From Fibrobacteria bacterium (GTDB taxonomy: Bacteria; Fibrobacterota; Fibrobacteria; UBA11236), in NCBI GenBank assembly GCA_041746255.1, contig JBGTHM010000039.1, positions 27,701 to 91,700 of the forward strand: 64,000 bases of DNA. The letters run 5' to 3'. Within the stretch, counting starts at the first letter, position 1; each line of letters begins with the position of its first letter. The notes beneath the pieces are model-generated. The model was given only the letters and a program-made list of their open reading frames with translations, had not been told where the DNA came from and did no database searches. A program made the translations under genes and the position numbers. Below are positions 11,847 through 22,097 of this stretch, in pieces.

Positions 11847-14123
11847 ATGATATTGCGATGGTTACCTTGGAAATACGTCATTCGCCGCGCCGCGCATGCG
11901 CATGGCTTCCTCGATCCTCTATCCATACTTGGCCGCCTGGGAAATTTCGCGCAACCTTCCGAAGTCACCGAGCCGGTGGAGTTGTTGCGCGCCGGACTGG
12001 TCTTCCATGCCCGGGGCCTAATCAATACCCGCGCCATTCAGAACAATCTCGACTGGGTGTGGCCTTATTGGGTGGAGCGCCAGTTTAATCCGCGCGATCC
12101 TTCTTTTATCCCCCGGGGTTTTTCCTTCAGCCATATCAATCTCTCGCACCGGAATTGGACCGCGGTAGGCGTGCCCGACTGTCCGTTTCTACCCTTGGTC
12201 GATCCTACCGGGTTGGTCACGCCTTTTATCGATGGTTGGTCGCTCGACGGTTGGATATTGCGTGAAGACGGAACCCGACTGCTTCCTTCCAAACTCAAGG
12301 AAAACAAGGAAATCCATCAAAACCTGATTCTGGAACCGGACGGGTTCGCCGTGGAAACGCAGGTTAAAAAAGGCGATATGACTTTGAAAAGCCGGGTGGA
12401 AGTGATTCTAAACGATGGGGAGCCTTATTGCATTATCCGCTACGAAGCGAAATCGCGCAAGCCGGGATGGGTGGCCGTATCCCTTCGGCCTTATAATCCG
12501 GAAGGGGTGAGCTTTGTAAAAAGCGTGCATTTTCACCCCGGGCAGGCTATCTGGACGATCAATGGCGAGCCTTGCGTCCGGTTCGTGGAGCCGGTGGAAA
12601 GTCATGCGGTATCCGAATATCGCCAAGGCGACGTATTGTCGCAATTGCCGCATCCCTCTCCCAATCTTTACCAAACCCAATGCAAGGTGGAAATGGCCAC
12701 CGCGGCGGCTTTGTTCCCTCTCGACGACAAAGGCCGGGGAGTGGTCACGGTTCAGGTGAAGTTGCACAAGGACAAGGAAACCCTGGACCGGTTCGGCAAA
12801 AAATATAAGGCGGTTCCCTGGCAGAAGGCTTTGGCCGAAACCTGCTCACTCAGCGTCCCTGATACCCGGTTTCAAAATCTTTTCGACATCGCGGTGCGAT
12901 CTTTGTTATTGCATTCGCCGGGAGAGGTTTTTCCCGGGCCTTACACGTATAAGCGATTCTGGTTTCGCGACGCGGCGTTTATGCTCGATGCCCTGCTGGC
13001 GGTCAACCTTCCGGATAGGGTCCGTCGCACCCTGGAGATTTTCCCGGAAAAGCAGACGGTAATGGGCTATTTTCTCTCCCAGGAAGGCGAGTGGGATTCC
13101 AATGGCGAAGCCATATGGATAATCAACCGTTATTGCGAGGTAACCCGCTCCTCTGCTCCCGAACATCTGCTCAACGCAGTGCGCCGAGGGGCGGAATGGA
13201 TTTGCCGCAAACGTATCCGGGGCGGTAAAGACGAACGGGTGGAAGGCCTGTTTCCCGCGGGTTTCAGCGCCGAACATCTGGGTCCCAACGACTTCTATTA
13301 CTGGGACGATTTCTGGGGCGTGGCGGGATTGCGCGCCGCAGCGGCGCTCTTTGATCGCGATGGATACGCCCAAGAGGCGGAACGGTTCCGAAGAGAAGCG
13401 GACGATTTTCAACAGGCGATAGATAGGAGTATAGCCCTCACCCAGAAAGAAGGCGGCTTGGGCCGAGCCGTTCCGGCGGCTCCCCGCAGACGCATGGACT
13501 CGGGAGCCGTGGGATCCCTCGCGGCGTCATACCCATTGAAGCTCTATCCCTTAGCTGATGAGCGTATGTTGGAAACCGCCCTCTATTTGCGCAAGCACCA
13601 TAGCGTACGTGGGGCCTTCTTCCAGGATATGATCCATTCCGGCATCAACGCCTACCTCACCTTGCATATCGCCCAGGTCTTGCTGCGCGCGGGCGATGCC
13701 GGGCATTTTGAATTGGTGGAGAAGGTGGTCGACCTCGCGTCGCCGACGGGTCAATGGCCCGAAGCCATCCATCCCCATACCTTGGGCGGTTGCATGGGGG
13801 ATGGCCACCATGCCTGGGCCTCGGCCGAGTGGGTATTGATGATACGCAGCCTGTTCCTGATAGAGGAGGAGGATTCTCTCATCCTTTGTGCAGGCATTCC
13901 ACGCAAATGGCTGGATCAGGGGAGTCCTCTGCGTTTCGGCCCGACACCTACCCGGTTCGGTACCGTTACCGTCCATGTCCGCCCTGAAAAAGGCCGGGTG
14001 AAAGTGGCCTGGGAGGCCGATTGGAAAGGGCCGCAGCCCCGGATTGAGGTGCGCCTCGAGGGCGCGGAAACGGCGGAGAGGCCTGCGAAAGGTATTGCTG
14101 CGGTGGCGATAGACCGGGTTTAA
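11847..14123 (+). CDS. Six-hairpin (alpha/alpha)6 glycosidase-like protein
   Basis: PGPYTYKRFWFRDAA, GEWDSNG, YYWDDFWG and GQWPEAIHP...GDGHHAW motifs typical of inverting glycosidase-like barrels. Lies next to a sugar ABC transporter. Confidence 0.75.
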   Translation: MILRWLPWKYVIRRAAHAHGFLDPLSILGRLGNFAQPSEVTEPVELLRAGLVFHARGLINTRAIQNNLDWVWPYWVERQFNPRDPSFIPRGFSFSHINLSHRNWTAVGVPDCPFLPLVDPTGLVTPFIDGWSLDGWILREDGTRLLPSKLKENKEIHQNLILEPDGFAVETQVKKGDMTLKSRVEVILNDGEPYCIIRYEAKSRKPGWVAVSLRPYNPEGVSFVKSVHFHPGQAIWTINGEPCVRFVEPVESHAVSEYRQGDVLSQLPHPSPNLYQTQCKVEMATAAALFPLDDKGRGVVTVQVKLHKDKETLDRFGKKYKAVPWQKALAETCSLSVPDTRFQNLFDIAVRSLLLHSPGEVFPGPYTYKRFWFRDAAFMLDALLAVNLPDRVRRTLEIFPEKQTVMGYFLSQEGEWDSNGEAIWIINRYCEVTRSSAPEHLLNAVRRGAEWICRKRIRGGKDERVEGLFPAGFSAEHLGPNDFYYWDDFWGVAGLRAAAALFDRDGYAQEAERFRREADDFQQAIDRSIALTQKEGGLGRAVPAAPRRRMDSGAVGSLAASYPLKLYPLADERMLETALYLRKHHSVRGAFFQDMIHSGINAYLTLHIAQVLLRAGDAGHFELVEKVVDLASPTGQWPEAIHPHTLGGCMGDGHHAWASAEWVLMIRSLFLIEEEDSLILCAGIPRKWLDQGSPLRFGPTPTRFGTVTVHVRPEKGRVKVAWEADWKGPQPRIEVRLEGAETAERPAKGIAAVAIDRV

Positions 14124-14251
14124 ACTGAAAGGCCCATTCCCGACTTCCTCGGTCTAGGGGAGTTCCCGATAGGCCACGTGACCGGCCTAAAAACAGGCCA
14201 ACCTTAGTATATTAAACCCAATCCCCATCCTAAACTGGAGAGTGTGCGCTG

Positions 14252-15538
14252 ATGACTATGAAAATGCATTTTGCGGGAATTCGGACCGCATGGATTCTCT
14301 TGATTTTTTCCCTTTCTTCCGTGACCGCTAAACCGTTACAACTCTGGGTGAACTCCGATACGGACCGAAAATATTATGAGAACATGGTCAAGCTTTACCA
14401 GAAAGACTTCGATCCGAAGTTCAAAATGGATATTCGCTCCTACGGTTTCGTCGAGATGCCCGACAAGCTTTCCATCGCCATTAAAACCGGCATCAACGCG
14501 CCCGACATCGTGCAAATCGATGAGCTCTATTTCAGCCTCTTTTTGAAACCCGACGACATGCCTTTTCTCGATCTCACCGAAAGGATCAAGAAAAGCGGCC
14601 TTGAGCGCGGAATGATGCCGCAACGGATGCGCCTCTTCGAGCATAAGAATCGATATTACGGGCTCCCCCAATCCATCAGCGCGGTGGTGCTTTACTACCG
14701 GGCCGACGTCTTCGAAGAATTGCAGATTTCCCCGCGCTCCATCGACACCTGGGACAAATTCATGGAAGTGGGCAGGCGGCTGAAAACCGGCAACCGCTCG
14801 CTTCTGGCTATGGATTGGTCTTATTTCGAAATTCTCTTGCGCCAGCGTGGCTATGACCTCTTCGATACCGACGGCAAAGATCGCCTGCTGGATTCCGTGA
14901 CGGTGGAAACCCTGGACTTTCTGGTGAAGATGTCCCAGGAGGGAGTCGGTGAAAATCCGGACCGGGGTTCCATTTTCGATGCGACTTTTTTCGGCGGCGA
15001 CGTAGCGAATAACGAAGTGATGGCTATCATGGGCGCGGGCTGGTACGGGCTGGATATGATTCAAAATCTCTCTCCCCCGGAATTAATCGGCAAGTGGAGG
15101 GCAATGCCGCTGCCGACCTGGACCGACGACAAATCGAATAAACGCACCACTTCCACATTTTCCGGTCAAGGCCTGGTTCTATTTTCGAAAACCAAGCGGG
15201 CCGACGATGCCTGGAAATTCGTACAATGGGTGATGGAAAACCCGGAAGCCAATGTACAACGCTACCTGCAGGGCAATTGCATTACGCCTTTCCGGCCGGC
15301 ATGGGTGGATATGCGCTTCAACCGTCCCGACTCCACTTTCGGAGGCCAGTCGCTGGGCGCGATAACTCTTGAACTCGCATCCCAAGTTCCCGCCATGGTT
15401 CAGGACCCACGCCGGATTATCGTAGTCAATTTGCTACGCGAAAATTACTGGCAATCCCTGATGGATGGAACGACAAGCGCGAAGGAGGTGCTTACCGCAA
15501 TTCGCGCTGAACTGGGCAAGGGGAAATCCCGGAAATAA
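14252..15538 (+). CDS. Carbohydrate ABC transporter substrate-binding protein
   Basis: Signal peptide; APDIVQID, YGLPQS...LYYRAD and AWKFVQW motifs; first gene of a CUT1 operon. Confidence 0.9.
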   Translation: MTMKMHFAGIRTAWILLIFSLSSVTAKPLQLWVNSDTDRKYYENMVKLYQKDFDPKFKMDIRSYGFVEMPDKLSIAIKTGINAPDIVQIDELYFSLFLKPDDMPFLDLTERIKKSGLERGMMPQRMRLFEHKNRYYGLPQSISAVVLYYRADVFEELQISPRSIDTWDKFMEVGRRLKTGNRSLLAMDWSYFEILLRQRGYDLFDTDGKDRLLDSVTVETLDFLVKMSQEGVGENPDRGSIFDATFFGGDVANNEVMAIMGAGWYGLDMIQNLSPPELIGKWRAMPLPTWTDDKSNKRTTSTFSGQGLVLFSKTKRADDAWKFVQWVMENPEANVQRYLQGNCITPFRPAWVDMRFNRPDSTFGGQSLGAITLELASQVPAMVQDPRRIIVVNLLRENYWQSLMDGTTSAKEVLTAIRAELGKGKSRK

Positions 15539-15550
15539 TGGGGGAGAGCC

Positions 15551-16438
15551 ATGAGCGCCCAGCCTGGCTTGAAACCTTTCCCCAAAGCCTATTTAGCGCC
15601 CTTTTTATTGGGGTATTTGGCTTTTTGGCTCATCCCCCTGGTGGAGGGCTTCGGGTTAAGTCTGCAAAGCGACACGCGCTTTAAGCAAAGCGAATTCGTG
15701 GGTGCGCAACACTATCTCAACCTTTTAGACGATGGCCGGTTTTTCACGGCCTTGCAGAATACGGGCCTCTATGCTTTTGGCACCATTGCGGTCATATTGC
15801 CCTTGTCCCTTTTGTTGGCAAGCCTGCTACGAGGCGCTTTAGGCCGATTACGCGGGATCTACGCTTTTCTCCTCCTGCTCCCCGGCTTGACCCCTCCTTC
15901 GGTACTGGCGTTTTTGTTCCTGATGGTATTCAGCGGCCCCAGGGGATATCTCAACGCCGGTCTCGAGCTTTTCGATTTGGGACCATTCGGTTGGTTTCAA
16001 GATCCCGTCTTCATCCGCCTGTCCTTGGTTTTACAGGCGGTATGGCGGTGGACGGGCTTCGCCACGCTTTTTCTGGCAGCGGGCATGGATTCCATCCCCC
16101 GATCACTTTATGAAACCGCGCGTTCCGAAGGGGCGGGGGTGTGGCAAAGATTCGTCCATGTAACTCTGCCGCTACTACGTAACGTAATCATCTTCGTCTG
16201 CGCGTTTTTATTGCTGGACGCCTTCGTGCTATTCGAAGGAGCATATGTTTTGCTGGGAAGCTCGGGCGGGCCGGGCGATGCCGGATTATTGCTGGTTTCC
16301 TATGCCTATTTCACCGCCTTTACCCTGGGGCGTTTCGGGTCCGCGGCGGCCATGAGCTTTTCGCTTATACCCCTGGTTTTGCTCATGCTCGGCGTTTTGT
16401 TTCTGGTTTTTGGACGACGACGCGGGAAGGAGGCTTAA
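15551..16438 (+). CDS. Carbohydrate ABC transporter permease 1
   Basis: Multiple TM segments; EAA loop LYETARSEGAGVWQRFVHVTLP. Confidence 0.92.
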   Translation: MSAQPGLKPFPKAYLAPFLLGYLAFWLIPLVEGFGLSLQSDTRFKQSEFVGAQHYLNLLDDGRFFTALQNTGLYAFGTIAVILPLSLLLASLLRGALGRLRGIYAFLLLLPGLTPPSVLAFLFLMVFSGPRGYLNAGLELFDLGPFGWFQDPVFIRLSLVLQAVWRWTGFATLFLAAGMDSIPRSLYETARSEGAGVWQRFVHVTLPLLRNVIIFVCAFLLLDAFVLFEGAYVLLGSSGGPGDAGLLLVSYAYFTAFTLGRFGSAAAMSFSLIPLVLLMLGVLFLVFGRRRGKEA

Positions 16439-16445
16439 ACCCGTC

Positions 16446-17306
16446 ATGCTGCCTTCGCTGGGATTTAAAACTCTTTCTCCCGATCGTCGCCGCCTGGCAC
16501 AACGGATCGGCATCAGTTTGATGCTTTCCCTGCCCTGCGCCTTTTTCGCCTTTCCTTTTCTCTGGATGCTTTTCTCGGTTTCCAAAACCAATCTGGAGAT
16601 TTTCACTCCCCTTAAATTCTTTCCCGACGCTTATTCCTGGGATGCCTTTCGGGCGCTGCTGGGCGGCGAACATATTCCCTTCGTAAGGCAATACGCCAAT
16701 TCCCTGTTTATCGCTTCGGTGCAATCCGTGGGGGCGGTTGCCGTTTCCGCCACCGCCGGATTCGTTTTCGGCCGCTACGAATTTCCCTTTAGACGTACCC
16801 TGTTGGTGCTGGCCGTGTTTACCGTACTCATCCCCCGGCAGGTGCTGGTGCTTCCGCTATTTTTGTGGATGCACCGTTTGCATCTGCTTGATACGCCCTT
16901 CGCGGTTATCCTCCCCGGGGTGGTTACGGGCTTGGGAATCCTCTACTTCACCATGGTGTTCCGCAGGGTGCCGGGCCATTTGTTGGATGCCGCGCGCATG
17001 GAAGGAGCCTCCGAATACCGGGTGTTTCGTTTCGCGCTTCCGCTTGTCCTGCCCTCGCTGCTTACCTACGGGCTCATCCATTTTATCCTGGCCTGGCATG
17101 AGCATATCATTCCCCTGGTCATGCTCAACACGGAAACCCGCTTGACGGTGCCCTTGGCGCTGAGCAGCCTTTACGGGGGTGACATGCGCGTTCCCTACGC
17201 CATGCTCATGGTCGGCTCGCTGGTAACGGTATTGCCTACGGCATTGCTGTATTTTTTCTTGCGGCGCCATTTTCAATCATCCCTGGCCGACCTTACTTCG
17301 CGATAG
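16446..17306 (+). CDS. Carbohydrate ABC transporter permease 2
   Basis: EAA loop LLDAARMEGASEYRVF and TM segments. ATG at 16446 follows AGGAGG. Confidence 0.92.
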   Translation: MLPSLGFKTLSPDRRRLAQRIGISLMLSLPCAFFAFPFLWMLFSVSKTNLEIFTPLKFFPDAYSWDAFRALLGGEHIPFVRQYANSLFIASVQSVGAVAVSATAGFVFGRYEFPFRRTLLVLAVFTVLIPRQVLVLPLFLWMHRLHLLDTPFAVILPGVVTGLGILYFTMVFRRVPGHLLDAARMEGASEYRVFRFALPLVLPSLLTYGLIHFILAWHEHIIPLVMLNTETRLTVPLALSSLYGGDMRVPYAMLMVGSLVTVLPTALLYFFLRRHFQSSLADLTSR

Positions 17307-17316
17307 GAGGAGATGC

Positions 17317-18456
17317 TTGCCTTACCTTTCATTCCGAAATGTCGGTAAAACCTTTGCCGGTACGGTCAAAGCCGTAAACGATTTCACGCTGGAGATAGGC
17401 GAGGGTGAACTTGTCACCCTGGTTGGGCCGTCGGGATGCGGAAAATCCACTTTGTTGCGGCTGACGGCCGGGTTGGAAGACCTTACCACCGGTGAAATCC
17501 TGCTCGCGGGCAAACCCGTGCACCACCTTCCCCCCGGGCGTCGCGACATGGCCATGATGTTCCAGGATTATGCGCTGTTCCCGCATATGACGGTGGAGGA
17601 AAACATGGGCTTCGGCCTGCGCATGCGGGGCCATGCCAAACGCGAGGTCTCGGAAAGCGTGCGCGAAACCGCCGCTTCGTTGGGATTGGGCGACTTGCTG
17701 GCCCGCTTTCCTTCCGAATTGTCGGGAGGGCAAAGACAACGTACCGCTTTGGGGAGGGCCATATTGCGCCGTCCCCGCGTTTTTCTGATGGACGAGCCCT
17801 TATCGAATCTTGACGCCGAGCTGCGCCAGCGTATGCGCGTGGAGCTTAAAGAATTGCACGGACGCCTCAAGACCACCATGCTTTTTGTTACTCACGATCA
17901 AAGCGAGGCCATGACCCTGGGCGACCGCATCGTGGTCCTGCGCGACGGGACTATCCAGCAGGTTGACACGCCGCTTAGGCTATACAACAAGCCTGAAAAT
18001 GAATTCGTGGCGGGTTTTTTCGGCTCTCCCGGAATGAATCTCCTGCCGGGCCACGTCGAGAAGGATGACGGAGGCCTTTGGTTTCGGGGTGCAGGGTTCC
18101 GGGTAAGAATCGCCACGGGTGAAGCGACGCTCAGGGATGCATCCGGAGCGGAAGTCGTCGAAGTCACTCTGGGTGTGCGGCCGGAGGGTTTCACCCACAA
18201 GGATGAGTCCGTTACCCGAGAAGGGGAGGGAATCGAAGGAAGGGTAAGGCTTTGGGAACAAATGGGTTCGCACCTGCTGCTTTATTTGCGCTGCGGGTCC
18301 GCGGAGGTGGTGGCGCGCATGGAAAGTGGGTGGGAATCCGCCGCGATTCCCCATGTAGGTGAGGCCTTGCGACTCTCCATCGACATGGCGCAGGCACATT
18401 TTTTCGCAAAAAAGACGGGGATGCGGCTAACCCTGACAACGGCCGTCGCAAGTTGA
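17317..18456 (+). CDS. Sugar ABC transporter ATP-binding protein (MalK/MsmK family)
   Basis: GPSGCGKS, LSGGQRQR, DEPLSNLDA and VTHDQ motifs, with a C-terminal TOBE-like domain. Confidence 0.96.
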   Translation: MPYLSFRNVGKTFAGTVKAVNDFTLEIGEGELVTLVGPSGCGKSTLLRLTAGLEDLTTGEILLAGKPVHHLPPGRRDMAMMFQDYALFPHMTVEENMGFGLRMRGHAKREVSESVRETAASLGLGDLLARFPSELSGGQRQRTALGRAILRRPRVFLMDEPLSNLDAELRQRMRVELKELHGRLKTTMLFVTHDQSEAMTLGDRIVVLRDGTIQQVDTPLRLYNKPENEFVAGFFGSPGMNLLPGHVEKDDGGLWFRGAGFRVRIATGEATLRDASGAEVVEVTLGVRPEGFTHKDESVTREGEGIEGRVRLWEQMGSHLLLYLRCGSAEVVARMESGWESAAIPHVGEALRLSIDMAQAHFFAKKTGMRLTLTTAVAS

Positions 18457-18476
18457 ATAGATGCGACGGGGACGAT

Positions 18477-19673
18477 TCACATTAGAGCCATAAGTAGCGA
18501 ATCCGGAGCGGAAAAAAAACAAGCCTTCTCGGCGGAGGCCGAAACCGCTTCCTGCAAGGCCGGGTCCCGGGTGACGAAAAAGGCGGTAACCCGGGCGCCA
18601 TGGTTCTTGGCGACCTTAATCATGGGGAGATCCGCCCAGGTATCCCCGCAAATAAGCGCCTCTCCGGTCAGGGGTATTTTCAGGCGGCTCGAAAGGAACA
18701 AGAGTCCGTCTCCCTTGGTGAACTCCCGGAGCGAGCCCCCCGGTCCGCTTTCATCGACGGTCAGGAGAATTTCCACATCGAGTCCGGTATCTTCCAGCCG
18801 GAAATACTTTTGTTCGGGATCGGTTTCCCAAACGGCGGCTTCCACTTCAGCCTTGAATTGCGCGCTTAAAGCCGGGGAGGCCGAACGGGCGATGTCCTGT
18901 ATCGCTACCGTAAGTTGACCGAACTTTTTTTGCATTCCCGAACCAATGCGTGCAAACAGGCCGTAATGCGGAAGTTGCAGGAGGCGAGTGAGTTTTTCCT
19001 CCAGGCGTAAAAGTTTTTCCTCCTGGTCGGGGAGCAGCGTGTCGTGGCCGCAAAGGCCGTCGGGAGTCGAATACTCTCTGCCCTTCGACCCGGCATAAAC
19101 ACAGAGGTCCGACGGCATGACGTTGACATCGACCAGCCCGCCTCCTTTTAGTGGTGCGGAGGTCAGTACCATGGCCCGGGTGCAATACGCACGGATGAAG
19201 CGGGAGAGGATGACGGCGGCGTGTACCGGTTGCACCGAAGACCAATATCGGGCGCAATAATTATTGATGGTTCCGTCGCGGTCGGCGACCAGGATATCGA
19301 GTTTCGCGCCGGCCAGGGCCGCGGACCCGCTTTCGGCTTCCTGCTCCCATTGTGGATGTGATCCCCGCCACCATTTCCGGAAACTTCCGGCGTCCCGGCT
19401 CAAGTAGACGTCGTCTTTCTGCGATTCTCGGATTTCATAACCGATATCCAATGCCACCGGTTTTTCCGCTTCAAGAAACAGACGGAGGCCATCACGCTCC
19501 GGCAGGCTCGATAATTTCTGTAAATAATGTAACAAAAAATCGATATCCTTTTTTTGCGGAGATTCGTCGGCCAATAACCGGGAAGCCACGCGGGCGCGTG
19601 TAGCCCTCAAAATCGGCATGCTTTCGCGGAATTCCTTAAGATTCATTGTCGAGTGGGAATAGAAAGCGGGCAT
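18477..19673 (-). CDS. HAD phosphatase, nematode GOB-1-type trehalose-6-phosphate phosphatase homolog
   Basis: HAD motif I DRDGT followed by NNYCARYWSSVQP, VLTSAPL, GSKGRE, IGSGMQKK, KGDG and ICGDTWADLPM. N-terminal helical extension. Divergent from the TPS gene. Confidence 0.8.
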   Translation of the reverse strand: MPAFYSHSTMNLKEFRESMPILRATRARVASRLLADESPQKKDIDFLLHYLQKLSSLPERDGLRLFLEAEKPVALDIGYEIRESQKDDVYLSRDAGSFRKWWRGSHPQWEQEAESGSAALAGAKLDILVADRDGTINNYCARYWSSVQPVHAAVILSRFIRAYCTRAMVLTSAPLKGGGLVDVNVMPSDLCVYAGSKGREYSTPDGLCGHDTLLPDQEEKLLRLEEKLTRLLQLPHYGLFARIGSGMQKKFGQLTVAIQDIARSASPALSAQFKAEVEAAVWETDPEQKYFRLEDTGLDVEILLTVDESGPGGSLREFTKGDGLLFLSSRLKIPLTGEALICGDTWADLPMIKVAKNHGARVTAFFVTRDPALQEAVSASAEKACFFSAPDSLLMALM

Positions 19674-19859
19674 GGTTCAAAAAGTAAAACCTTCCCCAGC
19701 GCCGCAAAGGGGTATTCTGCGAAAATAACGCTGGATCGGTGCGTAGAGGAAAAACTATTTTGGGGCGAATGCCGGAAAGTTATTACAATTCGAGGTAACA
19801 CCCAAAATCAGGAAGGACAATCAACCGCGTCCTTCCATTCAGCCATAAGGAGACTTCCC

Positions 19860-22097
19860 ATGCGCTTGGTGGTCGTTTCGAACCGTTTACCCTTTACGGT
19901 GGTGGAAAAAGAGGGCAAGCTGCGTTTTAAAGCCAGTTCCGGAGGATTGGTCAGCGGTCTGGGCGCATATATCGATAAGATGCGCTCCCTGGGCCACGCA
20001 GCGGAAACCCTGTGGGTGGGCTGGCCCGGTATCACAGTCGATAAACCGGAATTGCGGGCCGGCCTCAAGGCCAAGGCCTTGTCCGATCACTCCGCCTACC
20101 CGGTTTTTCTCTCCGAAGAGGCGATGGATAATTTTTACTTCGGTTTTTGCAACGGCACGCTCTGGCCGCTATGCCATTATTTCCCCACCTTCGCGAAATA
20201 CGAAGAGGAATATTGGGAAGTATACCGCGAAGTCAACCAGGCTTTTTGTGACGCGCTGCTTGAGATAGCCCAACCGGGCGATATTTTCTGGGTACACGAT
20301 TATCAGCTCATGTTGTTGCCGGCGATGTTGCGCGCCCGCATGCCCGAGGCCCTCATCGGATTCTTTTTTCACATCCCCTTCCCATCCTTCGAGATTTTCC
20401 GCTTACTGCCTCGAACATGGCGAGAGCAGCTGTTGGAAGGCCTTAACGGTTCCGACTTGGTGGGATTCCATACCAACGATTATACGCAAAACTTCTTACG
20501 CTCCTGTTTGCGAAACCTCGGTTTGGAGCATAACCTAGGCTACCTCTCGCAGGGCGAACGCACTTGGAAAGCCGATACCTTTCCCATGGGCATCGATTTC
20601 GACAAATACCATGACGCCGTCGGCACCCCCGGAGTGGTCAAGGAGGCGGACAAGTTGCGCCGGAAAATGGAGAACGTCCGTACGGTATTTTCCGTCGACA
20701 GGCTCGATTACAGCAAAGGCATCCTCAATCGGCTGGAGGGTTACGCACAATTTCTGGCCGACAACCCCGATTGGCACCGCCGCGTCATCCTTATCATGGT
20801 GGTGGTGCCTTCCCGCACGGGCGTGGAGCAGTACCAGATCATGAAGCGGCAGGTGGATGAGGCCGTAGGCCGCATCAACGGGGAATATGGCGACGTGCAT
20901 TGGACGCCGGTTCTCTACCAGTACCGTTCCGTTTCCTTCGATCAACTCATCGCCCTCTATAGCTTGAGCGACGTGGCCCTTTTGACGCCGCTTCGCGACG
21001 GCATGAATCTCGTCGCCAAGGAATATGTGGCGGCCCGCGCCGACCAGACGGGGGTGCTCATTCTCAGCGAGATGGCCGGAGCCGCCAAGGAAATGGGAGA
21101 GGCCCTAATCGTAAACCCCAACCATAAAAAGGAAATTGCGGAGGCCATCCGTACCGCCTTGGACATGCCGGTGCAGGAACAGGTACGTAATATCCAGGCC
21201 CTGCAAGATCGGCTTCGTCGCTATAGCGTCTTCCGGTGGGCCGAGGATTTCGTGGAAAGGCTGCGTGAAGTCAGAGCGAGACAAAAGCAGATGGAGTCGC
21301 GCCTCCTCACCCAGGATAAACGCCAGGAAATGCTGGAGGCATTCGCCAAAGCTAAAAACCCCCTGCTGTTCCTGGACTGCGAGGGCACCTTGATGCCTAT
21401 GCCGCTGGATACCAAACAGGTGTCTCCCGATGAGGAATTGGTGGAGTTGCTGGGCTCCCTGGCCTCAGATGGAAAGAGCCGCGTGGTATTGCTCAGCGGA
21501 CGCGACAAGGAATCGGTGGAATCGTGGTTCGGCGAATTGCCGGTGGATTTGGTGGCGGAGCACGGCGTATGGATCCGCGATCAGGCACGGGCGTGGAGTC
21601 TCATTCTCCCCATGCACGCGGAGTGGAAATCCACCCTGATTCCCTTGCTGAATGCCTATGTGGACCGGCTTCCGCGTTCGCGCCTTATTGAAAAGGAATT
21701 TTCCCTGGCCTTTCACTACCGCCAATCCGATCCGGAACAGGCGTTTTTGCGCGCCAGTGAATTATTGGACGATTTGGTGGGTCTCACATCCAATTTCGGA
21801 CTGCAAATCCTGGAAGGTTACAAAGTCATCGAAATTCACAATGCCGGCGTCAATAAACATGCCGCTGCCATGCATTGGCTGGCCGAGGTGAACCCGGATT
21901 TCGTGTTGGGGATTGGGGATGACCGTACCGACGAAGACCTTTTCCGGGCTCTGCCGGAAAACGGCTATTCCATCAAGGTAGGAGCGAGCAAATCCTTCGC
22001 ACGTTTCAACCTCTCCCAAAGGGACGATGTGCGGAAACTCCTGCTTCATATGGTGCAGGCCAATCAGGTGGCGGGAGGCGTGTCTTTGAGAGTTTAG
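19860..22097 (+). CDS. otsA: Trehalose-6-phosphate synthase fused to a trehalose-phosphatase domain (GT20 + HAD-IIB)
   Basis: VVSNRLP, SSGGL, WVHDYQL, HIPFP, DRLDYSKG and DGMNLVAKEY motifs; C-terminal HAD with DCEGT, SGR and GDDRTDED. ATG at 19860 follows AAGGAG. Confidence 0.95.
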   Translation: MRLVVVSNRLPFTVVEKEGKLRFKASSGGLVSGLGAYIDKMRSLGHAAETLWVGWPGITVDKPELRAGLKAKALSDHSAYPVFLSEEAMDNFYFGFCNGTLWPLCHYFPTFAKYEEEYWEVYREVNQAFCDALLEIAQPGDIFWVHDYQLMLLPAMLRARMPEALIGFFFHIPFPSFEIFRLLPRTWREQLLEGLNGSDLVGFHTNDYTQNFLRSCLRNLGLEHNLGYLSQGERTWKADTFPMGIDFDKYHDAVGTPGVVKEADKLRRKMENVRTVFSVDRLDYSKGILNRLEGYAQFLADNPDWHRRVILIMVVVPSRTGVEQYQIMKRQVDEAVGRINGEYGDVHWTPVLYQYRSVSFDQLIALYSLSDVALLTPLRDGMNLVAKEYVAARADQTGVLILSEMAGAAKEMGEALIVNPNHKKEIAEAIRTALDMPVQEQVRNIQALQDRLRRYSVFRWAEDFVERLREVRARQKQMESRLLTQDKRQEMLEAFAKAKNPLLFLDCEGTLMPMPLDTKQVSPDEELVELLGSLASDGKSRVVLLSGRDKESVESWFGELPVDLVAEHGVWIRDQARAWSLILPMHAEWKSTLIPLLNAYVDRLPRSRLIEKEFSLAFHYRQSDPEQAFLRASELLDDLVGLTSNFGLQILEGYKVIEIHNAGVNKHAAAMHWLAEVNPDFVLGIGDDRTDEDLFRALPENGYSIKVGASKSFARFNLSQRDDVRKLLLHMVQANQVAGGVSLRV

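Follow-up and report, generated by a model that had tools for sequence, protein, structure and literature searches.

Why should a bacterium with a trehalose-6-phosphate synthase (TPS) already fused to a phosphatase domain carry, head-to-head with the fusion gene, a second and unrelated trehalose 6-phosphate (T6P) phosphatase of the nematode kind? The question is raised by a stretch of 64,000 nucleotides from a Fibrobacteria bacterium (contig JBGTHM010000039.1 of assembly GCA_041746255.1), called the window below, in which a reverse-strand open reading frame (ORF) of 398 amino acids (aa) encodes a member of the T6PP_N/T6PP_C family of trehalose-6-phosphate phosphatases (T6PP). As far as sequence and predicted structure can tell, it is probably a working T6P phosphatase that serves the adjacent synthase and does most or all of the dephosphorylation of T6P. 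The occurrence of the family in bacteria, with these Pfam domains in databases, is already known, as is the candidacy of the nematode gene gob-1 for horizontal transfer. What is new is that the family's usual partner is a fusion of beta-phosphoglucomutase (beta-PGM) and a GH65 enzyme rather than a TPS, and that the window genome is the exception, without GH65 and with a TPS-phosphatase (TPS-TPP) fusion in which motif I of the phosphatase domain reads DCEGT.

By sequence and modelled fold, the 398-aa product is a member of the haloacid dehalogenase (HAD) superfamily of the GOB-1/Brugia type, with a predicted N-terminal helical bundle, HAD core and C2 cap and an intact catalytic set. The Pfam model T6PP_C (PF21141) matches it with an E-value of 5.3e-69 and 232.9 bits against a cut-off of 26.7, over profile positions 1-265 of 267 (234.2 bits in a profile scan of the whole genome), and T6PP_N (PF18572) matches residues 12-93 with an E-value of 1.1e-6 and 28.9 bits against a cut-off of 25. 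The entries for the Brugia malayi enzyme (4ofz/5e0o) are the sole matches in a sequence search of the PDB (E 1.1e-40). The NCBIfam library holds no model matching the protein, and the OtsB-type models PF02358 and TIGR00685 give no match to it at E-values up to 1. An AlphaFold2 model, for which the input alignment held 36 sequences, has a mean pLDDT of 87.6 and a pTM of 0.86, with N-terminal helices at residues 12-34, 41-55 and 78-92 (pLDDT 83-96). When this model is compared with the PDB by Foldseek, 4ofz comes first (E 2.3e-29, TM 0.77/0.74), and as the alignment runs over 429 columns for a target of 418 residues it includes the N-terminal helical domain. The next matches are T6P phosphatases too: M. 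tuberculosis OtsB2 (TM 0.50), then fungal and Burkholderia enzymes.

An earlier note, made by a model from the DNA letters and their translated reading frames, had proposed homology to the nematode T6PP, which it described as having an N-terminal helical bundle and as differing from OtsB in this. The homology is borne out by the two Pfam models, the PDB search and the full-length structural match to 4ofz, the same bundle is indicated in the window protein by the T6PP_N match and the predicted helices, and the difference from OtsB shows in the absence of a PF02358 match together with the extra N-terminal domain. The motifs quoted in that note (DRDGTINNYCARYWSSVQPVHAAV, VLTSAPLKGGG, GSKGRE, FARIGSGMQKK, KGDG and ICGDTWADLPM) are all present in the translation, and the Brugia motifs that it listed (ITDWDGTMKDYCSQYATNLQP, VLTAGPLRGPG, GSWGRE, VGSGVQRK and ICGDTLSDIPM) are accurate and stand in the same order in a BLASTP alignment with GOB1_BRUMA (P0403).

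HAD motifs I-IV are complete in the phosphatase (D131-R-D133-G-T, T171/S172, K320 and G343-D344-T-W-A-D348). Every one of the 120 aligned family members has D131, D133, T135, S172, K320, D344 and D348, and all 63 invariant columns of the 36-sequence alignment are retained. The motifs of the bacterial clade are almost frozen over 120 sequences (DRDGTxNNYCxRY..SxQ, LTSAPL, GSKGRE, GSGxQxKFGQ, KGDG, CGDTxSD). BLASTP gives 28% identity to B. malayi GOB1_BRUMA over 433 columns and 33% to a Caenorhabditis japonica homologue (P0374, a possible orthologue of GOB-1) over 307 columns. The residue alignment pairs window residues D131, D133, Y139, Q248 and K250 with Brugia D213, D215, Y221, Q332 and K334. 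Mutagenesis of the Brugia enzyme found Y221, Q332, K334, D336 and R337 to be important (Farelli et al., PMC4081830), and three of these five (as Y139, Q248 and K250) are kept in the window protein.

The divergent arrangement described in the earlier note is correct, the two genes being separated by an intergenic region of ~190-210 bp. The note overlooked that the adjoining TPS is a TPS-TPP fusion which already bears an OtsB-type phosphatase domain. Pfam finds both parts (PF00982, E 3.2e-143; PF02358, E 3.7e-38), the full-length bifunctional model NF011071 matches with 960.8 bits against a cut-off of 634, and the likely start, an ATG, has aaggag ahead of it. This OtsB-type domain is the only one in the window genome according to a genome-wide profile search.

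The Asp at position +2 of HAD motif I is the general acid/base of HAD phosphatases, and Glu at this position strongly lowers the activity of phosphoserine phosphatase. In the fused TPP domain of the window the Asp is replaced by Glu (codon 21381-21383), and the catalytic DxD pattern is thereby lost. The best 120 homologues of the domain comprise 118 with DYD, one that was not parsed and one, the window protein itself, with DCE. The TPS-TPP of a congener (G001) also reads DCEGT, and is 87% and 82% identical to that of the window genome (G000) over its two halves, whereas the TPS-TPPs of family-level relatives, ~50% identical, read DYDGT in six of six cases (five of five without the unpublished G021). 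In the congener (L013 / L007, G001:C106) the TPS-TPP frame is broken into two ORFs near residue 461/466, either by a frameshift or by an assembly error. The window TPS-TPP is 49-53% identical to those of its family relatives as against 45-46% to the TPS-TPPs that adjoin the phosphatase gene elsewhere, which suggests that the synthase is the resident and the phosphatase gene the later arrival.

The usual surroundings of the family are different. In a sample of 80 metagenome loci, some of them near-duplicates, 57 reach 1500 bp or more beyond the phosphatase gene on its downstream side, and in 44 of these a beta-PGM-GH65 ORF follows immediately on the same strand. Counted at any position, beta-PGM-GH65 is found in 51 of the 57; the remaining placements comprise five on the same strand (either mis-scored by the ORF rule or with a gap or frameshift), one convergent and one divergent. 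The other six loci are without it, and the neighbours scanned in four of them (L014, L018, L035, L037) are unrelated. Where at least 3400 bp lie downstream, an ORF of at least 1000 aa is present in 42 of 49 loci. The fusion protein (e.g. L022:9188-12385, L027:9203-12373, L054:4257-7445) is ~1060 aa long and joins a HAD domain of the beta-phosphoglucomutase family (TIGR02009, above cut-off) to a complete GH65 enzyme. The solved structure that matches it best is 9lb6 (518.8 bits), an entry deposited under the title ‘Trehalose-6-phosphate hydrolase’, ahead of kojibiose phosphorylase (386.3 bits), glucosylglycerol phosphorylase (257) and maltose phosphorylase (217). Since a fused beta-PGM would be sensible only with beta-glucose 1-phosphate (beta-G1P) as a reactant, the GH65 part is read as a putative phosphorylase acting on T6P, similar to T6P phosphorylase (TrePP).

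The link between the phosphatase and beta-PGM-GH65 is confirmed by gene fusions. Single bacterial polypeptides of ~1070 aa combine T6PP_N, T6PP_C, beta-PGM and GH65 parts, and eukaryotic polypeptides of 1400-2100 aa combine beta-PGM, GH65 and a T6PP_N/T6PP_C phosphatase (P0124, P0127, P0128, P0346, P0353, P0361, P0376, P0421). Among the latter are those of Diplonema papillatum (P0353), Flectonema (P0361), Euglena mutabilis (P0421) and Biecheleria (P0376), and an unfused 487-aa homologue from the euglenid Peranema clusters with these triple fusions.

The same partnership is seen in whole genomes. Of the 296 genomes examined from the phylum 21 carry the family, and the 20 carriers other than the window genome belong to other families. 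GH65 is found in all 20, within ~2.5 kb of the phosphatase gene in 19. Five of the 20 have an OtsB-type domain, and the same five have a GT20 synthase; in the remaining 15 (completeness 77-98%) no TPS or OtsB was found. The window genome, alone among the 21 carriers, lacks GH65. TPS-TPP occurs in the flanks of six of the 30 loci where both sides reach 5 kb or more; it lies immediately upstream in four of the 48 with 2.5 kb or more of upstream sequence, and in L078 besides. It adjoins the phosphatase gene at L033, L052, L053, L071 and L078, of which L033 has the head-to-head order of the window, yet still has the GH65 fusion downstream. TPS adjacency is the minority context for the family. The earlier note had taken the position beside TPS as support for T6PP function; the recurrence of T6P-forming neighbours, be they TPS or the TrePP-like GH65, does make that function plausible.

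If the window protein works as its homologues suggest, Asp131 would be phosphorylated by the substrate, with Asp133 as general acid/base, while Thr171/Ser172, Lys320, Asp344 and Asp348 would bind phosphate and Mg2+ and the cap residues Tyr139, Gln248 and Lys250 would hold the sugar. The substrate is most likely T6P supplied by the divergently transcribed TPS-TPP gene, in which case the gene pair would make trehalose. The phosphatase would then substitute for, or back up, an impaired fused TPP domain; with Glu in place of the acid/base Asp in the synthase's OtsB-type domain, the separate enzyme would probably account for most, if not all, of the T6P dephosphorylation. Both the identity of the substrate and the inactivity of the fused domain are inferred.

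Several observations weigh against this reading, and they divide between two alternatives. In the first the fused domain still works despite its Glu, and the phosphatase gene is redundant or auxiliary, adding capacity, for instance against toxic T6P under stress. The other motifs of the fused domain (SGR, NK, GDDRTDE) are intact and the domain is 82% identical between the window genome and its congener. Canonical TPS-TPP and the phosphatase gene occur side by side at other loci, and five of the 20 other carrier genomes of the phylum have both. The TPS-TPPs adjoining the phosphatase elsewhere all read canonical DxDGT, which also rules out the family as a general replacement for degenerate fused TPP domains. 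The change from Asp to Glu, on the other hand, strikes the HAD general acid/base itself and is unique among 119 readable homologues and 13 neighbour or relative sequences read. Redundancy is the most serious competitor, with perhaps a quarter of the weight on its side, and the separate enzyme as the principal T6P phosphatase is to be preferred.

In the second alternative the protein is an active phosphatase with another substrate, such as another alpha-glucoside phosphate or beta-glucose phosphates, and lies beside TPS incidentally or for regulatory reasons. Two of the five mutagenesis-defined residues differ, Brugia D336 being G252 and R337 being Q253 in the window protein, and this KFGQ form of the cap is invariant across bacterial members. 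The C. japonica homologue reads DRDGT and KHYGH, nearer the bacterial form than the D-R of Brugia, so the D-R pair is no hallmark of the family and is not universal among nematodes. The window protein departs from the bacterial consensus at the near-invariant positions S149P, S347A and T254L, its closest non-self relative is only 44% identical, which would allow a shifted specificity, and its branch is long and isolated: in a tree built from the locus sequences, with 88 different rows among 97, it measures 2.44, the median being 0.19. No characterised bacterial member appears in the papers found. Against these points stand the match of Y139, Q248 and K250 to the T6P-binding residues of Brugia, the fact that T6P phosphatases make up all of the best structural matches, and the recurrence of two unrelated kinds of T6P-forming enzyme, GT20 synthase and TrePP-like GH65, as neighbours and fusion partners of the family. 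A substrate other than T6P is, on this balance, unlikely.

Very improbable is a remnant of a lost T6PP/beta-PGM-GH65 module, under relaxed selection and with no current role, for the lone lack of GH65 among the 21 carriers, the long terminal branch and the absence of the family from all 40 other genomes of the window's class are outweighed by an open, full-length reading frame, the retention of every invariant column, a confident structure model and a branch that, in a tree of 50%-identity representatives, measures 1.07 against a median of 0.62 and seems to owe its length mostly to missing close relatives.

The T6P phosphatase serving the synthase may be one outcome of a wider history. The pairing of beta-PGM with a TrePP-like enzyme, often where no TPS or OtsB was detected, suggests a natural TPS-independent route to T6P and trehalose. 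In this undescribed route, which would use no nucleotide sugar, the fused beta-PGM may convert glucose 6-phosphate (G6P) to beta-G1P, the TrePP-like GH65 may run in reverse to make T6P and inorganic phosphate from beta-G1P and G6P, and the T6PP_N/T6PP_C phosphatase may pull the reaction to trehalose, in bacteria and in protists. GH65 T6P phosphorylases of bacteria that do not use the phosphotransferase system (PTS), from Caldithrix abyssi and Ca. Kuenenia, have been shown to form T6P from beta-G1P and G6P (PMC8537180). In the lineage of the window, the phosphatase may have been captured without GH65 and rewired to a conventional TPS, the TPP domain of which then lost its acid/base Asp; this would be a natural displacement of one T6P phosphatase family by another within a single pathway. 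Taken as a whole, the route together with the capture is a tentative proposal, somewhat more likely to fall than to stand.

The family is not rare. A word-indexed protein search with the phosphatase gave 1149 matches at E <= 1e-3 among 8000 candidates scored, and the best 120 of these all have both T6PP_N and T6PP_C. The matches listed have as their sources Pseudodesulfovibrio, Acidobacteria, Chitinivibrionales, Bacteroidota and Cloacimonadia, and their names include ‘hypothetical protein’ and ‘trehalose 6-phosphate synthase’. Many bacterial members (P0041, P0055, P0069, P0072 and others) bear the latter name in NCBI/UniRef despite their homology to HAD phosphatases, and the label looks like a propagated misnomer. 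An exhaustive search of 1.84 billion representatives found 259 clusters at 50% identity with E <= 1e-3, 216 with E <= 1e-10 and 135 with E <= 1e-30, mostly bacterial; the rest of the family's range takes in nematodes, together with euglenozoans and a dinoflagellate in which it forms part of triple fusions. The Atlas clusters are bacterial (Chlorobiota, Thermodesulfobacteriota) with one from a nematode. Within the class-level neighbourhood of the window the family occurs in one of 41 genomes, that of the window itself. The congener G001 gave no family match, but its two relevant contigs stop at the edges of the permease-ATPase-phosphatase stretch, so that absence is unproven. The GC content of the phosphatase-gene region (0.56) is not distinct from that of the rest of the window. 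From this distribution we infer that the gene was gained by horizontal transfer into this lineage. By its sequence the window protein is an ordinary, isolated and somewhat atypical bacterial member of the family.

The earlier note had also held that the gene bears on the origin of the nematode enzyme, to which it adds little, and nothing specific as to the donor. Transfer had been raised already by Crisp et al. in 2015, who place gob-1 among the foreign genes of ‘class A’, its top non-metazoan match scoring 135 bits against 39 for the top metazoan one (PMC4358723). In a BLAST ranking from the Brugia protein the window protein is 30th of 137, with 150 bits where the best bacterial representative has 176, so that it is ruled out as a bacterial protein especially close to the nematode enzymes. 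A quick IQ-TREE phylogeny of 69 of the 137 available sequences, with 28 bacterial representatives chosen at random, unites seven named and two unnamed nematode sequences in one clade (SH-aLRT 96) with two deep subclades, the Brugia type and the Caenorhabditis type. The protist group is a separate clade among bacterial sequences (SH-aLRT 99), and the window protein falls in an unresolved bacterial cluster. The midpoint root lies between nematodes and all else, and the nematodes are not shown nested in bacteria.

Two nematode proteins annotated as TPS, P0382 (Romanomermis, 773 aa) and P0387 (Aphelenchoides avenae, ‘TPS-2, partial’), contain a T6PP_C-like region of the Caenorhabditis subtype, and the T6PP_C domain seems to exist in nematodes as two deep paralogous lineages. 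P0400 and P0413 (Solidesulfovibrio carbinoliphilus and Desulfovibrio sp. U5L) have degenerate motifs, DAVL.. for DGT.. and GGPSGL for GDTxSD, and are probably non-catalytic derivatives of the family. The placement of P0400, of the Solidesulfovibrio type, beside the nematodes by FastTree was not reproduced by IQ-TREE and, given the degenerate motifs and long branch, is treated as an artefact.

The features of the locus are collected in Table 1. The phosphatase gene starts either at 19673 or, for a product of 389 aa from Met10, at 19646; the version in the public protein collection (P0001) is the 389-aa one beginning with Met10.

Table 1. Features at and around the phosphatase gene, in window coordinates
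Feature	Position	Strand	Basis or remark
758-aa protein followed by sugar-type ABC transporter; neighbourhood convergent with the phosphatase gene	11847..18456	+	ORFs
758-aa protein	11847-14123	+	adjoins the ABC transporter genes, on their upstream side
Phosphatase gene, T6PP_N + T6PP_C (GOB-1/Brugia) family	18477..19673	-	ORF, 398 aa
HAD core and cap domain, residues 128-391	18501..19292	-	Pfam T6PP_C
HAD motif I, D131-R-D133-G-T	19269-19283	-	translation of 19269-19292 is LVADRDGT
N-terminal helical (MIT-like) domain, residues 12-93	19395..19640	-	Pfam T6PP_N and model helices
Other phosphatase motifs			LTSAPL 170-175, GSKGRE 195-200, cap GSGMQKKFGQ 244-253, K320, GDTWAD 343-348
Divergent intergenic region, phosphatase / TPS-TPP	19674..19859	.	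sequence
Inverted repeat, 9-bp stem, GGAAGGACG...TGTCCTTCC	19811-19836		~15 nt upstream of the TPS ribosome-binding site
TPS-TPP gene, GT20 synthase + OtsB-type phosphatase domains, 745 aa (P0137)	19860..22097	+	ATG 19860
Unusual HAD motif I, D-C-E-G-T, in the fused TPP domain	21375..21389	+	translation LFLDCEGTLMP

The inverted repeat between the two genes might serve as an operator or form a structure in the 5' leader; a promoter scan of 18300-20000 returned no sigma-70-like site. The ABC transporter on the far side of the phosphatase gene consists of a binding protein, two permeases and an ATPase, and with the 758-aa protein it possibly serves disaccharide uptake or turnover, any tie to the phosphatase being conjectural. 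The 758-aa protein has no Pfam family, no sequence match in the PDB and only weak GH15-like matches in NCBIfam. The congener has it too, with 74% identity in the DNA. In the Atlas it resembles large bacterial clusters, unnamed themselves, that lie close to (alpha/alpha)6 glycosidase families (MGH1-like, rhamnosidase, GH65C), and it might act on a compatible solute as a glycoside hydrolase or phosphorylase not yet described.

A literature search, with subscription journals and supplements outside its coverage, found no paper on bacterial members of the family, on PF18572/PF21141 in bacteria or on a biosynthetic route based on TrePP, and nothing relevant on the PDB entries 9LB6/9LB7. A term search of a review of GH65 (PMC11442529), together with its section 9, gave no mention of fusions, the treatment of TrePP in a review of T6P (PMC12125463) gives it only as a degradation route, and a 2026 paper still calls such a T6P route, built in vitro, ‘new-to-nature’ (PMC13121652). 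The wider value of the locus is at the level of the family, the result from the window alone being modest. The window provides a functional annotation for a gene otherwise called ‘hypothetical’ or misnamed ‘trehalose 6-phosphate synthase’, and a case of a Glu-variant fused TPP domain alongside a second, unrelated T6P phosphatase. For anthelmintic work, the bacterial members are easily expressed relatives of a drug target.

How does the window phosphatase compare with known systems? With the OtsB-type enzymes (PF02358; E. coli OtsB, M. tuberculosis OtsB2, T. acidophilum 1U02) it shares a HAD-IIB core with a cap and, presumably, the reaction, but their structures are weaker Foldseek matches to its model (5gvx, TM 0.50; 1u02, TM 0.44/0.70), and it differs in having an extra N-terminal helical domain and no PF02358 match. 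With the nematode T6PP (4OFZ/5E0O; GOB-1) it shares the same two Pfam domains, the full-length fold, the motif order, the nucleophile, the acid/base and the counterparts of Y221/Q332/K334, although its N-terminus is ~70-100 residues shorter. The statement that the MIT-like N-domain is confined to nematodes and Mycobacterium (Farelli et al. 2014, PMC4081830) no longer holds, being superseded by the bacterial members. The window gene is bacterial and adjoins a TPS-TPP fusion, whereas nematodes have a separate tps gene.

The trehalose catabolism of Lactococcus lactis through TrePP and beta-PGM (Andersson 2001, cited in PMC12125463) has the same two activities as the usual partner of the family. 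The Lactococcus pathway degrades T6P and needs no phosphatase, whereas the family's module has a T6P phosphatase attached, which would be sensible only in the synthetic direction; the window lacks such a beta-PGM/GH65 module. A further comparison is with the uncharacterised bacterial T6PP_N/T6PP_C proteins encoded upstream of beta-PGM-GH65, as in Pseudodesulfovibrio, which are 38-44% identical to the window protein and have all the invariant residues in common with it. In these relatives the phosphatase gene is followed by the ~1060-aa beta-PGM-GH65 gene, whereas in the window genome, which is without GH65, it is paired with a TPS-TPP.

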